Source: a virus
Length of the DNA: 64,000 nt
IMG/VR virus record: IMGVR_UViG_3300030099_007533
Coordinates: 39,547 to 103,546 of that record
Reading direction: 5' to 3' (one strand)
Below, piece by piece: positions 1,808 to 55,374 of this stretch; the stretch's first letter is position 1, and every line of letters starts with the position of its first letter. Both the position numbers and the translations under genes were made by a program. The notes under the pieces are model-generated. The model was given only the letters and a program-made list of their open reading frames with translations, was not told the origin of the DNA and made no database searches.

Positions 1808-2310
1808 GTATCAAAACCAGCTTTGGCAATCACCCAACTATCTGCCTTATCATAACTGTCTGGGCGTGGATTACCTTTGTTGGTATATTCTACTACAAAC
1901 TGTGGCTCGTTGTCAAGCACAAATTGAAGTACAACTGGCTTGGCTTTAGTACCTCTTGGTACTTTTATCCCACAAATTCGCCTAGCTGAGACCGCAGCAA
2001 GGTACTCTGGTTCTAATTTAAATAAAGTAAAACAAATCCAACTAATCACGCCATTAAAGCGTGAAAGCGTTGAAAGAGTTTGTGCAGATGAAAATCCCGA
2101 TCTAAACGACTGTAAAGACTGTTCTATGTATATCTCTTGAACCGCGTAGGATTGTCTCAGAGAGATTAATTTCTCCTCAACCACCCCTACTTTGGTAAAA
2201 AAGTTTTTGTACTTTCTTGTGTCAATAGAGCCGTATTCTACAAGATTTCCACTGCCATCAAGGACTGTGTATCCTGTGATGCTGGTTGAAATATCTAATC
2301 CTAATATCAT
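1780..2310 (-). CDS. RuvC-like Holliday junction resolvase
   Basis: ILGLDISTSITGY, IYIEQ and DKADS acidic catalytic motifs. Confidence 0.85.
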   Translation of the reverse strand: MILGLDISTSITGYTVLDGSGNLVEYGSIDTRKYKNFFTKVGVVEEKLISLRQSYAVQEIYIEQSLQSFRSGFSSAQTLSTLSRFNGVISWICFTLFKLEPEYLAAVSARRICGIKVPRGTKAKPVVLQFVLDNEPQFVVEYTNKGNPRPDSYDKADSWVIAKAGFDTWQQKNKKS

Positions 2311-3650
2311 AAATCTATTTTTAACTTAAAGGTGTAATCTGTGCTATTTGTTTTAGTCACAGGTTTTGCTAATTTAGCAGTTCCTATAAGTATATCATTA
2401 TCATCATAAATATTAACCTTTGTTATGAAAGTTTGATCCTGATATGATGCAGAATAGTTTGCAAACGAGCTTGAGATTGTATTTTTAACCTCTATATATT
2501 CTTTTTCACGATAAACCGTAGAACCCGTTTCTGCAACAGCAATTTCTTGATAAGTTGATCCTGTTGCAAAGTTTCTATCCACATATGTTAAATTATTGCT
2601 CCAGTTAAATTCATTTTTATCTGCGTGTGCAAACATTGTAAGAGTTGGAATAGTGTTTGTGCCCTTAAATTTCAATTCATATGATGAAGATACTGGCGCA
2701 TAGCTTTGGGAAAAAACAGAGTCGGTCGGCTGAATGAAAGATTCATATGCTCCAAAATGTGCCCATTTTGGGTTATCTTTCCAAGCGTCTTGAAGTGTCA
2801 CTGCGCCGGGTCCTTTTATCGTTGTGGATGTACCTGTAACCGGACATAAATATCCATCTTGCACTGAACTGTCAAGACTATAATTACCTGTTAATAGTAA
2901 AATGCCCTCTTCGTATAAAACTGTTCCGACCACCCCATTAGTTCTTGGTCCGAGTGTCTCAATTATTTCACCATTTCTTTTGTTATCTTTAGCTGTTCCA
3001 ATAAGTGTCCCAGTAACATAAAAATTAAGTTCTAACGAACCGGGCTTAATTCTTTGAGCTTTAAATATTTCTGGAAATGAAAATAGCGCCATGTATTTTT
3101 GGCGTGGGGATGCCGCCCCCTCTATACTTGCTGCATTTGGAACTATATCTCCCAATATATAAAATTTCTTAAAATCAAATTTGGGACTACGCACCCTACC
3201 ATAGTCCATTACATTTTCAATAGCTATGAATTTGTGTACTGTATTCCTACTCGAAACTCCATCAATAATATCAAATCCGTTATAAGGGGCTGAACCATTT
3301 CCTATCAATCTCTCTCTGGTGACAAAAGACGTGAACGGGTATGCACCTGTAATTTGTGTGCCTGCGGCGAGTTCCAAATACTCATTAGTCTCTATTGTCC
3401 CAGTGACGTTATTGAAAACAAAATCATTTAAATTTTCACCTTTAATAATGAAAGGTTGAATTAAGTCACTCCCTTGAATCCTGTCAACATTAAGCTCGTA
3501 TAAAGAAATCGAACCACTTTGGACTCTATTGCCATCAGTTTGTCTGTTGTTAATATAAGATTGGTTAAAATAATATTTAAGAGTGTTTTGCGGATATGTT
3601 TTTACTGTATTGTAAAATATATCATCTGGTCCAAATTTCTTTTTTGGCAT
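2307..3650 (-). CDS. Virion structural protein (baseplate/tail-collar-like C-terminus)
   Basis: C-terminus FITKVNIYDDNDILIGTAKLAKPVTK...FKLKIDL is paralogous to that of 3662-4738; last gene of the tail module. Confidence 0.65.
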   Translation of the reverse strand: MPKKKFGPDDIFYNTVKTYPQNTLKYYFNQSYINNRQTDGNRVQSGSISLYELNVDRIQGSDLIQPFIIKGENLNDFVFNNVTGTIETNEYLELAAGTQITGAYPFTSFVTRERLIGNGSAPYNGFDIIDGVSSRNTVHKFIAIENVMDYGRVRSPKFDFKKFYILGDIVPNAASIEGAASPRQKYMALFSFPEIFKAQRIKPGSLELNFYVTGTLIGTAKDNKRNGEIIETLGPRTNGVVGTVLYEEGILLLTGNYSLDSSVQDGYLCPVTGTSTTIKGPGAVTLQDAWKDNPKWAHFGAYESFIQPTDSVFSQSYAPVSSSYELKFKGTNTIPTLTMFAHADKNEFNWSNNLTYVDRNFATGSTYQEIAVAETGSTVYREKEYIEVKNTISSSFANYSASYQDQTFITKVNIYDDNDILIGTAKLAKPVTKTNSTDYTFKLKIDL

Positions 3651-3661
3651 TTTTTCATCTC

Positions 3662-52823: not shown

Positions 52824-54106
52824 TCAATTTCTTCAATAACGCTTAAAGATTTAAGCCACTCATCAACATTATATTCATCGTCATCATAAAAAGCCTCTAT
52901 AAAAGATTTGTAAATTTTTTCCTCTGTAAAAGTTTCTAAGACATGCTTTTTCAACTTCTTAGATTGACCTAAATAAAGTCCATAATTTTCGTAACACTGT
53001 CTTAAAGCAATTTGGCATGATCCCCAATTTGGAAATGCCCATTGGCTTTCAGGCTGTAAGACACTATCCCATACCGCCTCTCTTTGAATTGGCTTTAAAT
53101 CATAAGACACCTTTGTAAAATGTGGTCTTAATTTTTCTTTTCCTTTCTTATCCTTCTTTGGTGCGTAGAGAAAATCTTTTTGTCCACCCCAGTCATGTGT
53201 TATAACAGGCAGACCAACAGCGGCAGCTTCAAACAATGGAAGCCCATACCCCTCGCCGTGACCAAAGTTTATCATTGCCTTAATTTTTGGATGGGTATAA
53301 AGCGAGCTTAATTCTTCTTTGGTCATATAACCATGCAACAAATGAATTGAGCAAGTTCTATCTGGATAATGATTCAAAATTTGATTAATTCTTTTTTTAG
53401 TTTGTGCAAAATCAATTGTAGAACCGTCTTTAATAGATACCTTTAAAACCAGACCTACTTCTTCATCCTTAAATTCATCAATAAAATATTTTATAGTCCC
53501 CTCAATATTTTTTCTTGGTCCCCATTGTGCCACACAAAGAAAGTTAAAATCATTCTTTAATTTAAGAGTATCATGTACGCAATCTGATGGTTTAAGAAAT
53601 TCTTTCTCAACCGGATAATTAACTACGTCAACCGGCTTCTCCAAGCTTAATTTTACGTCTGCACCACTTGGATCCTTTGCGTCCCAAAGAGCGTTAACAA
53701 AACTTTGTTTTGAGAATTCAGATGGCACGATTATTTTATCAACAAAAAGATTTGCAGCCTCCAGCCAGTGAGGAGAGACCCTATCTGATTCAATCCCTGC
53801 ACAAACGCCAATATTTTCTGGGGCTGCTCGGTACTGTTTCCACTCAGATGGAATTGTAACCATTATTGTTGTATCAAAAGGCAAACGTTGTTTCATATGA
53901 GAATACGTTTTATTTATCAAATTATCTAATTCTTCTCTTTCACTGGTTTCCTCTGCTATCCAGCTTGTTGAACCCCAATTAACCGGATTAATAAAAATAT
54001 CAAATAAGTCTTCTCTACTTTTTAAAGCACGATACACCATTCTGGCGTGCTCACCATAACCAGATTGAGTTAGGATTGGTCCCACTAATAATACTTTCTT
54101 TTTCAT
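52820..54106 (-). CDS. GT4 glycosyltransferase
   Basis: SGYG, RKNI, GEGYGLPLFEAAAVGLPVI. Confidence 0.9.
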   Translation of the reverse strand: MKKKVLLVGPILTQSGYGEHARMVYRALKSREDLFDIFINPVNWGSTSWIAEETSEREELDNLINKTYSHMKQRLPFDTTIMVTIPSEWKQYRAAPENIGVCAGIESDRVSPHWLEAANLFVDKIIVPSEFSKQSFVNALWDAKDPSGADVKLSLEKPVDVVNYPVEKEFLKPSDCVHDTLKLKNDFNFLCVAQWGPRKNIEGTIKYFIDEFKDEEVGLVLKVSIKDGSTIDFAQTKKRINQILNHYPDRTCSIHLLHGYMTKEELSSLYTHPKIKAMINFGHGEGYGLPLFEAAAVGLPVITHDWGGQKDFLYAPKKDKKGKEKLRPHFTKVSYDLKPIQREAVWDSVLQPESQWAFPNWGSCQIALRQCYENYGLYLGQSKKLKKHVLETFTEEKIYKSFIEAFYDDDEYNVDEWLKSLSVIEEIE

Positions 54107-55374
54107 AGTTCTTCACTTCTCCAGTTTTTGTAGCTCTTTCTTTGATCCCACGAGCCGTGTTTTTCAACAACGTTAGTCATCAATTCTACCCACGACTTAT
54201 TGAATTCTTCAAAACTAAAATTATTAATAGCGTGTTGTCTTGCCAATAAGCCTAATTTAGAGCGCTCTTCTTTTTCCATGTCATACATTTTTTGCAATGC
54301 CTTCAAAAAATCTTCTTTATTGATTCTGTCTTCCATAACATATGGAACTAACTGTGAGCCTACCACTTGTTGTGAGCAGGGTTCAATCACAACACCAAAT
54401 TCATTTACACCGTCAGTTATCTGATCTTGGAGTCCACCTGTTCTTACAGCCACAGCGGGCGTCTCACAAGCAAGAGATTCTAAACAAGATAAGCCAAATC
54501 CTTCCGCATCTGATATGTTGACTGTAATATCCGCCATGTTATAAAGTGTTGCCATCTTTTGTGCATCAATTTTATCTCTTGAAAACAAAACTTGCCCCTT
54601 ATTCAAGCCCAGATCCTCTGTTATCTGCATTAAATCAGGACCATTTGGATCAGTCGGTTCTGTGTGCATAAGTAATACTGCCTTATCATCTCCGTTCCTT
54701 TCAAGAAATTCTTTAAACCAAAATATAAGAGTACCGCTGTGTTTGCGACGAGCATTTCTGCTATTAAAAAGAATAACAAAACGATCAGCAAGATTTCTAC
54801 CATCAGGACCTTTGTTCTCTTTCCTTAGTTCTTCTATTACTTCGTCTTCAAGCTTTTTAAAAACCTCAGTATTGACTGCATGTGGAATGTAATGGGACTC
54901 AACATTGGGTGCAACCGTTTTTACAATATCATCTGTAAGCTTTGAAATTGTTGCAATCACATCATTACTCTCATAAAACTTTTTATTAAACTTTGGGTAT
55001 GGATAATTGTCCCAAACATGATAGTAAACCATGGGGATATTTCTTCTGATTTCATTATCCATTTCCCACAACCAGCCCCAAAATCGCGGGTCTGTCATAA
55101 ACCAAAGTATATCAGGCTTTTCTTTCCATATAATAGAACGAAGTAATTCTTTTGTGCCAAATTGATCCACTGGTAAAATTTTCCATCTTTCGCCCCACTC
55201 TTCGGTGTGAATAAGGTTATGATGAGGGTGTTTTACTGCTCCGCCAAGCGAAAAAACATCAAACTTGTCACTTTTAAGAAGTGCTTCAATTACATATTTT
55301 GTTTGATTAGCAACTCCAGATGTGCTCAACGGCATGTCACCTAAAGTGAGCACTTTAATTCTTTTTTGTTCCAT
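54103..55374 (-). CDS. GT4 glycosyltransferase
   Basis: SGVA, IPHAVNT..F, RNARRK, AEGFGLSCLESLACETP.V...TGG. Confidence 0.9.
   Translation of the reverse strand: MEQKRIKVLTLGDMPLSTSGVANQTKYVIEALLKSDKFDVFSLGGAVKHPHHNLIHTEEWGERWKILPVDQFGTKELLRSIIWKEKPDILWFMTDPRFWGWLWEMDNEIRRNIPMVYYHVWDNYPYPKFNKKFYESNDVIATISKLTDDIVKTVAPNVESHYIPHAVNTEVFKKLEDEVIEELRKENKGPDGRNLADRFVILFNSRNARRKHSGTLIFWFKEFLERNGDDKAVLLMHTEPTDPNGPDLMQITEDLGLNKGQVLFSRDKIDAQKMATLYNMADITVNISDAEGFGLSCLESLACETPAVAVRTGGLQDQITDGVNEFGVVIEPCSQQVVGSQLVPYVMEDRINKEDFLKALQKMYDMEKEERSKLGLLARQHAINNFSFEEFNKSWVELMTNVVEKHGSWDQRKSYKNWRSEEL

Follow-up and report, generated by a model that had tools for sequence, protein, structure and literature searches.

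Large clusters of glycan genes have been known in marine phages for about twenty years and, to our knowledge, no target has been demonstrated for any of them; the usual guesses are host lipopolysaccharide (LPS) or phage DNA. Here we describe a glycan island (31417-55374) in a window of 64,000 nucleotides, the whole stretch of DNA that was analysed, which forms bases 39547-103546 of the 103.5-kb linear viral contig IMGVR_UViG_3300030099_007533 in IMG/VR; positions are those of the window unless another record is named. The island begins with two adjacent glycosyltransferase (GT) genes of family GT4, here called GT4a and GT4b, and is located directly upstream of a gp25-like/gp6-like baseplate operon. 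This operon is part of a tail block (window genes 2307-28124) where several proteins are enriched in the tripeptide [ST]GS, that is Ser or Thr followed by Gly-Ser. From these sequence features we predict a phage-borne, membrane-independent glycosylation system which O-glycosylates the outer tail proteins of the phage in the cytoplasm, and we consider the chances of this reading to be about even.

Clusters of 13-24 GT and nucleoside diphosphate (NDP)-sugar genes, including Gmd and perosamine-type enzymes, are found in the T4-like cyanomyoviruses P-SSM2, S-SCSM1 and S-SCSM2R, where they have been read as modifying the host surface or DNA (PMC12801897). Those clusters differ from the present one in having no GT4a/b homolog (S-SKS1 was checked) and a motif that is only 1.26-fold enriched. 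Mycobacteriophage virion O-glycosylation, as far as PMC12619734 relates the work of Freeman et al. 2023, uses one to few GTs and places glycans at the C-termini of capsid and tail-tube subunits. Like the system in that account, the present one is proposed to direct soluble phage GTs to the virion proteins of the phage itself without export or lipid-carrier genes. Unlike it, about 8-10 GTs and several rare-sugar pathways are present, and the candidate sites are internal tripeptides of a defined kind in the outer domains of the sheath and in baseplate or fibre proteins. The acceptor given there is not matched either, as the major capsid protein of our virus has 1 site against 0.74 expected and is not enriched.

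Giant viruses such as Mimivirus and the chloroviruses encode rare-sugar pathways of their own, together with cytoplasmic GTs that modify surface proteins of the virion (PMC9614988). They differ in their eukaryote hosts and unrelated acceptor proteins, and GT4a is weakly similar to chlorovirus B736L (E 1.6e-4). We know of no shared sequon in giant-virus glycosylation. SdgA/SdgB and GtfA/GtfB are adjacent GT-B/GT4 pairs which act in the cytoplasm on Ser of short repeated motifs, with further GTs extending the glycan (PMC8561734). GT4a and GT4b have the same GT-B/GT4 core with an EX7E motif (PF00534), but no DUF1975 insertion domain was detected in them (only GT1-type Pfam families), the similarity is marginal, and the candidate phage acceptors are scattered tripeptides and not long Ser-rich repeats. 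In addition, GtfB is non-catalytic whereas both phage proteins keep EX7E. Serotype-converting loci (Gtr, Oac and Wzy-type) also consist of phage glycan-modifying genes, but they belong to temperate phages, and their products are membrane proteins whose substrate is O-antigen in lipid-linked or periplasmic form; the present system shows none of these features.

A literature search on virion glycosylation of the cultured relatives, Flavobacterium phage immuto, Microcystis phage Mel-JY01 and Rhodothermus phage RM378, gave nothing relevant. Immuto, in full vB_FspM_immuto, infects Flavobacterium sp. LMO8; its sheath is gp041 and its tail spike gp101. Marine myoviruses were already known to carry large GT clusters, and actinophages to glycosylate their virions; what is new is a defined motif, its clade-wide and protein-specific distribution, an island that is hypervariable inside but anchored by conserved GT4 genes, and relatives in culture for direct tests. 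The question of the target becomes testable with a candidate acceptor motif, named candidate acceptor proteins and three cultured phages that have the GT4 pair, where immuto and Mel-JY01 show the motif clearly and RM378 is ambiguous.

A tripeptide motif in the tail proteins

When all tripeptides of the tail block were compared with the composition of each protein, TGS was observed to be the most over-represented (21 observed, 3.6 expected, p 3e-10) and SGS the second; expected counts throughout take residues as independent within each protein. The 2944-aa giant tail/baseplate protein (11013-19847, with a LamG domain at residues 165-333) has 19 [ST]GS sites against 2.8 expected, the 764-aa LamG/ConA-like tail protein (19880-22174; PF13385 E 8e-27) has 6 against 1.18 and a 311-aa protein (10051-10986) has 2 against 0.19, while two paralogous tail proteins of 358 and 447 aa (2307-4738) have 4 and 3 sites respectively; all these genes are on the minus strand. 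The 986-aa tail sheath, encoded outside the window, has 9 sites where 1.1 are expected. An earlier note on this DNA had described such proteins as packed with the motif, and the 6-7-fold enrichment is indeed far beyond chance, although "packed" overstates a density of 4 sites in 358 aa or 19 in 2944 aa. The sites are scattered, internal, single tripeptides with differing flanks. One site of the 311-aa protein, FTGS, is common to the source contig and two syntenic relatives, G001 and G002. Site codons vary, with both AGY and TCN serines used, which places the signal at the protein level and rules out a DNA-level origin. An origin in a shared repeat or domain was also ruled out, since the flanks differ and the sites are located outside the LamG domains.

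The enrichment is protein-specific, is conserved over 33-80% identity and falls on the same orthologous tail proteins in every full-island genome. Orthologs, which are not independent observations, were collected from relatives' contigs or genomes whose genes were called with a simple custom ORF (open reading frame) picker; G022 (188 kb) is complete, and G025 and G027 are complete or near-complete. The 71 orthologs of the LamG tail protein hold 463 sites against 64 expected (7.2-fold) and the 16 orthologs of the giant protein hold 189 against 37 (5.1-fold). The gp6-like and gp25-like baseplate wedge proteins (22174-24349, minus strand; phrog_219, phrog_261 and PF04965) form an internal negative control, with 7 sites against 32.7 in 79 gp6-like orthologs (0.21-fold) and none against 4.9 in 80 gp25-like orthologs. 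Fifty large unmatched ORFs of these loci, most of them upstream of the wedge genes, have 40 sites against 49.9 expected (0.8-fold).

The position profile was taken from six tail proteins pooled from six genomes (34,158 aa). Thr (7.4-fold) and Ser (4.6-fold) dominate the first position, where every other residue is at most 1.5-fold and Asn is at 0.4-fold, so that N-G-S is depleted. The second position prefers Gly, then Ala (3-fold) and then Ser (2-fold), and the third is Ser, far above Thr (1.6-2.0-fold). A motif defined this sharply is as expected of an enzyme recognition site, and the profile is difficult to explain through beta-turn propensity.

In 33 sheaths, 226 sites are distributed over 55 alignment columns and not one column is universal, which indicates that the number of sites is kept while their positions turn over. 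All of them fall within query residues ~137-647, where conservation is poor, and the conserved core at the N- and C-termini has none. The sheath was identified by phrog_23 (E 1e-64), and its AlphaFold2 (AF2) model, with a predicted local distance difference test (pLDDT) score of 74, matches T4 gp18 (entry 3FOA) with Z 15.7 and a root-mean-square deviation of 3.7 Å over 295 residues. Published work on T4 gp18 places the variable domains at the outer surface and the conserved C-terminal domain in the inner layer.

A conserved GT4 pair and a variable island

GT4a (54103-55374, minus strand; PF00534 E 7e-15), the first island gene, encodes a retaining-type GT4 of 423 aa, and GT4b (52820-54106, minus strand; PF00534 E 2.5e-7), always found adjacent to it, encodes a protein of 428 aa; both lengths are ordinary for GT-B. 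The coordinates show the GT4a stop overlapping the GT4b start by 4 nt. EX7E is near-invariant in both proteins (E291/E299 in GT4a and E285/E293 in GT4b). The nearest PDB sequences to GT4a are BshA, MshA and chlorovirus B736L, while the sole PDB sequence matches of GT4b are SdgB entries, at a marginal E of 5e-3 and aligned over the C-terminal half only. Orthologs of GT4a are 50-75% identical in the relatives and 26-35% in immuto, Mel-JY01 and RM378.

The pair is kept in about 30 relatives, including these three cultured phages. It was found in 25 of 29 further contigs, the remaining four of which may not cover the slot, and GT4b orthologs occur in all relatives that cover it. In G001 and G002 the glycan island occupies the identical slot, with a PD-(D/E)XK nuclease gene on one side and the cupin, putative sigma factor and baseplate genes on the other. 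Both proteins of the pair reach 75% identity in G001, and in G002 GT4b reaches 51%. The interiors of the three islands have almost nothing in common and are of unequal length (13, 24 and 25 kb). The island is a fixed slot with a conserved GT4 flank and a hypervariable interior. The gene before the GT4 pair encodes a PD-(D/E)XK nuclease in immuto and Mel-JY01 and is annotated as 'similar to DNA polymerase I' in RM378.

Two side observations concern this slot. The complete genome G022 carries a compact eight-gene island (L191:7584-15261) with three GT4 genes, Gmd, DegT, a PglD-like acetyltransferase and two unknowns, which looks like a GDP-N-acetylperosamine-type pathway and the simplest full system for reconstitution. 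In immuto the hypothetical protein gp185 (381 aa; NC_055915.1 46550-47695), with about four hydrophobic segments, is located between the lysis genes and the nuclease/GT island, and no counterpart was seen in the window.

The motif and the island were observed to occur together. Unbiased scans of six full-island genomes place TGS first and SGS second or third, and SGS ranks first in cultured phage immuto. Proteome-wide, [ST]GS is 2.0-2.85 times its expectation in nine GT4a-positive genomes, immuto, Mel-JY01 and RM378 among them, each with 3-10 significantly enriched proteins, against 0.70 in T4 (no enriched protein), 1.46 in HTVC008M and 1.26 in S-SKS1, which are GT4a-free controls; S-SKS1 does have Gmd. 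A natural loss is seen in G020 (~80% complete), which together with its close relative G021 is nested in the motif-rich clade of a wedge-protein tree made by quick search (Shimodaira-Hasegawa-like approximate likelihood ratio test, SH-aLRT, 91-95). Its slot holds GT4a and GT4b only, and about 138 island genes of seven relatives have no homolog anywhere on its 145 kb. The six-protein tail set of G020 has 16 sites against 7.2 expected, compared with 5.3-6.8-fold enrichment elsewhere; these orthologs have the same Ser/Thr/Gly content as the others, yet TGS and SGS are not among their top tripeptides, and all eight of the LamG sites common to other genomes are substituted. The association across relatives, proposed in the earlier note as a check, thus runs in the predicted direction: every relative with the GT4 pair and further glycan genes is strongly enriched, the three T4-like controls show little or no enrichment, and G020 has lost most of its sites.

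No convincing transmembrane (TM) segment was found in any island ORF, the top Kyte-Doolittle value over 19 residues being 1.63 inside an aminotransferase, and no ORF of the island matches a Pfam family of Wzx, Wzy, WecA, WbaP, WaaL, Gtr, Wzm or Wzt. The hydropathy scan and Pfam therefore agree with the earlier statement that the cluster lacks TM segments and genes of the Wzx/Wzy/Wzm/Wzt, WecA/WbaP, WaaL and GtrABC types. A crude hydrophobicity scan of G022, G025 and G027 found at least three hydrophobic segments only in proteins of tape-measure size, in small proteins (112-116 aa) and in one 266-aa protein, which suggests that the lineage encodes no flippase, polymerase, ligase or initiating transferase. 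Polytopic proteins in these relatives are limited to tape-measure and holin-like ones.

Known DNA-glycosylation systems, in which phage GTs and partner epimerases build mono- to trisaccharides on DNA, need enzymes that make the acceptor base (10.1101/2023.12.21.572611). Neither a ThyA-family enzyme (PF00303) nor a C5-methyltransferase (PF00145) was found in the source contig, G001, G022, G025 or G027. A search for TET/JBP (PF12851) is uninformative, since it did not score in any control genome. Immuto has a DpdA/7-deazaguanine system.

Proposed tail glycosylation and its alternatives

In the predicted system, soluble cytoplasmic GTs would transfer sugars late in infection from nucleotide sugars to Ser/Thr of [T/S]-[G>A]-S, before or during tail assembly. 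The most likely acceptors would be the sheath, in its outer domains, the LamG protein encoded beside the wedge, and the proteins of 2944, 358, 447 and 311 aa. GT4a and GT4b, translationally coupled and both with EX7E, would probably build an invariant inner part of the glycan, and the strain-variable GTs together with GDP-6-deoxyhexose, N-acetyl/N-formyl amino sugar, RfbH-type dideoxy sugar and methylation would supply a variable outer part. We infer the acceptor role of the motif, its reading by a GT and the late timing. The conservation of GT4a/b in phages of Bacteroidota, Cyanobacteria and Rhodothermus suggests that a phage-borne acceptor fits better than a host one. A wider claim, that the contractile tails of a widespread aquatic myovirus lineage with these hosts bear O-antigen-like glycans of rare sugars, which vary between strains and are assembled in the cytoplasm on [T/S]-[G/A]-S, is tentative and in our judgement falls somewhat short of an even chance.

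Several observations weigh against this prediction. The conserved pair is intact in G020 where the motif is lost, so a different acceptor may be the target of GT4a/b, and the motif may be read by some other enzyme. In RM378 only GT4a/b and a sub-threshold GT2-like match are present, with no sugar pathway, and still the motif is 2.7-fold enriched overall, though not in the sheath. One or two tail proteins each of HTVC008M and S-SKS1 are about 3-fold enriched without the GT4 pair, and period-6 low-complexity repeats account for some of the enrichment of Mel-JY01 and immuto. Since the GT4a-positive phages all belong to one lineage, the co-occurrence may reflect shared ancestry, and a single independent loss supports the link. 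Furthermore, no enrichment was found for the T4 late-promoter consensus TATAAATA, which has 11 matches where 8.4 are expected, and GT4a also matches PF20706, a family of GT4 proteins in conflict systems. Soluble GTs are normal in lipid-linked O-antigen synthesis, and those of the island could act on host lipid-linked intermediates. The earlier proposal that the phage builds its glycan on Ser/Thr of its own virion is thus partly supported by the motif-island association and by the absence, in the complete relatives, of lipid-carrier or export machinery and of the known enzymes making DNA acceptor bases, while descent confounds the association and RM378 stands as a partial exception to it.

Among the alternatives, remodelling of the host envelope would have the soluble GTs and sugar pathways work at the inner face of the membrane, on host intermediates of O-antigen, capsule or glycoprotein that are linked to undecaprenyl, and so change the surface of the infected cell, with the initiating transferase, flippase and polymerase of the host completing the structure and with superinfection exclusion or less sticking of progeny to debris as the outcome; the motif would be unrelated. 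Peripheral O-antigen GTs usually have no TM segments, and a hypervariable interior between conserved flanks resembles O-antigen loci. It is also the standard reading of the similar clusters in P-SSM2, S-SCSM1 and S-SCSM2R (PMC12801897). We nevertheless consider it unlikely, as the GT4a/b anchors are kept across hosts of three phyla with different envelopes, no initiating, flipping, polymerising or ligating enzyme of the phage was found in the complete relatives, and the motif, its protein specificity and its loss in G020 are left unexplained. Glycosylation of modified bases against restriction, similar to the T4 alpha/beta-GT and glycan systems on 5-hydroxymethylcytosine (5hmC), is a very improbable role for the GTs. 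Precedent exists in the phage GTs and epimerases which make mono- to trisaccharides on DNA (10.1101/2023.12.21.572611), and both the PF20706 match of GT4a and the position of GT4a/b beside a PD-(D/E)XK nuclease in the relatives (in RM378 this neighbour bears the annotation 'similar to DNA polymerase I') could be taken in its favour. The five genomes searched have no ThyA-family hydroxymethylase or C5-methyltransferase, immuto uses its DpdA/7-deazaguanine system, and ten GTs with several rare-sugar pathways far exceed known DNA glycans and leave the motif unexplained.

The motif could also be real without being a glycosylation site, either as a structural element of beta-rich tail proteins or as the target of another modification, in which case the island would act on a different target and the two would occur together merely through inheritance in one lineage. 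The hydrophobic flanks at -1 and at +1 after the Ser are as found in a strand-turn-strand, some sites such as QFLTGSNKR are kept at 30-50% identity, and neither RM378 nor G020 fits a simple one-to-one relation between the motif and the GT4 pair. A turn element is expected to favour N-G, D-G, G-N and G-T, yet all four were observed at or below expectation; site positions turn over while their number is kept, the motif is missing from the wedge and from further large proteins of the baseplate in these virions, and the G020 orthologs lost it at unchanged Ser/Thr/Gly composition. This explanation is therefore doubtful, and we rate it marginally below host-envelope remodelling.

If glycosylation of the tail were true, no earlier phage system would be known in which virion glycosylation follows a defined sequon, the hypervariable island would be a viral 'serotype' locus, and tail sequons would be gained and lost as in animal-virus glycoproteins. 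Aquatic phages would then carry variable glycan coats, which could affect adsorption, adhesion to particles and mucus, grazing, protease resistance and immune recognition, and the motif could help to recognise, in sequence data, which virion proteins are glycosylated. Were the idea refuted, the motif would still be an unexplained and strongly selected feature of these tail proteins.

Gene content of the island and its surroundings

The island comprises 28 co-oriented ORFs, all on the minus strand, and Pfam and NCBIfam profile searches bear out the roughly 24-kb cluster with many sugar-decorating enzymes that had been described from the sequence. GTs are numerous, although the figure of about 11 GT or GT-like genes given in the earlier note comes down to eight solid ones and two leads. 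Pfam recognises seven: three GT2, two Glyco_trans_1_2 and the two GT4. The eighth, w51966 (51966-52823), follows GT4b and is a divergent GT-B-like protein with weak Pfam GT-B matches (E 0.07-0.13); it is homologous to the N-terminal parts of GT2 fusion proteins of 811 aa in G001, 537 aa in G002 and 547 aa in G027, and a sequence search of PDB gave no match. Two CgeB-type Glyco_trans_1_2 genes (PF13524 E 1e-21 and 4e-11) and one GT2 (PF00535 E 4e-25) are located at 49427-51969. The two leads, w33861 (33861-34724) and w38621 (38621-39445), are GT-A-like paralogs which a protein atlas puts near viral GT8/nucleotide-diphospho-sugar transferases. They were rejected as a common motif-reading enzyme because they are not shared with the relatives.

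A contiguous sugar module (45208-49502) consists of an RmlB-like 4,6-dehydratase (dTDP-glucose dehydratase model TIGR01181, E 1e-86), an RfbH/E1 3-dehydrase (NF011936, 465 bits, above the curated cut-off of 423), an RmlD-like reductase and a split transketolase, a mini form in two genes whose halves match PF02779 and PF00456. These genes point to a 3,6-dideoxy sugar that may bear a two-carbon branch, which is unusual in a phage. Pfam matches at 41061-45204 identify two GT2, an FkbM methyltransferase, a class-I methyltransferase and a PIG-L deacetylase, with an unknown ORF at 42473-43168. A further unknown ORF (40408-41058) lies beside the amino-sugar genes (34838-40405), which encode a formyltransferase, a metallo-beta-lactamase (MBL)-fold protein, a PseB/CapD-like short-chain dehydrogenase/reductase (SDR), a NeuD/PglB/VioB acetyltransferase and a short DegT, and which include w38621. 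The island has two DegT-family enzymes, one of which reaches the RfbH cut-off. The short DegT (34838-35671, 277 aa) covers profile positions 29-235 of 360 and lacks the C-terminal third, and it may be a decayed or split gene in a rearranged cassette; the adjoining PseB/CapD-like gene is likewise short (283 aa).

At the GDP-6-deoxyhexose end (31417-34724), w33861 is followed by an Fcl-like enzyme, Gmd and a cupin. The matches here are to PF16363 (E 1e-121) and to the GDP-L-fucose synthase model (E 1.5e-74, below its cut-off), and the cupin, 79% identical in G001, is the conserved distal anchor of the island. No nucleotidyltransferase was found in the island, from which we infer that the base nucleotide sugars must come from the host. 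The G+C content of the interior (36001-54000) is 0.30-0.35 against 0.36-0.40 in the tail block and at the Gmd end, which is consistent with imported cassettes.

Between the island and the baseplate genes is a putative gp55-like late sigma factor (30035-30724, minus strand), 50-81% conserved and found at the same border in relatives. The cluster had been placed upstream of a late sigma factor and a baseplate/tail operon; its position relative to the operon stands, and the sigma identity comes from a weak PHROG match (phrog_234, E 5e-4) with no Pfam support. Inspection of the intergenic regions revealed no clear promoter class. The 358-aa tail protein gave an AF2 model from seven orthologs with a pLDDT of 54, too poor for use. 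Its family (Mel-JY01 172489-181435; immuto 91354-93444) has a conserved N-terminal region of about 84 aa and is expanded in both phages, with five tandem paralogs in Mel-JY01, all motif-enriched; it resembles a set of modular fibres attached to the baseplate.

By its PHROG, Pfam and fold matches the source virus is a distant T4-like myovirus. CheckV gives the contig a completeness of about 42%, so that the whole genome would be near 250 kb. Almost all window genes are on the minus strand, the contig to the left of the window encodes the sheath, major capsid protein, portal and terminase, and a primase, helicase and SbcCD-like nuclease were also identified. Neither the island nor the tail block had a Megablast match among 50,697 phage records, and relatives were found through protein searches alone; the closest records by protein, about 30% identical, are an uncultured 484-kb phage, Mel-JY01 and immuto, and IMG/VR holds about 400 relatives for the sheath and about 345 for the wedge protein. 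The Moraphage, a group of large aquatic Bacteroidota phages, are reported to have DnaK/DnaJ heat-shock genes in all members and four core GT orthogroups (PMC12619734). Membership of this group was rejected, as a search for HSP70 (PF00012) found none in the source contig, G001, G022, G025 or G027; conserved GTs are common to both groups but are not specific.

Some minor features were also observed outside the island. The SbcD-like gene at 3-872 and the SbcC-like gene at 37263-39512 of the source contig both match one ORF of about 1050 aa in G001 and G002, which points to a fused SbcCD nuclease in this lineage. Upstream of the island, 57210-60447 encodes a PIN-PhoH fusion (438 aa), a ClpP-like protease (221 aa) and an adenylosuccinate synthetase (336 aa). 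Furthermore, an 880-aa protein with DUF6267 and a cytidylyltransferase-like domain is encoded at 61353-63995, and its ortholog in G001 is longer (1158 aa).

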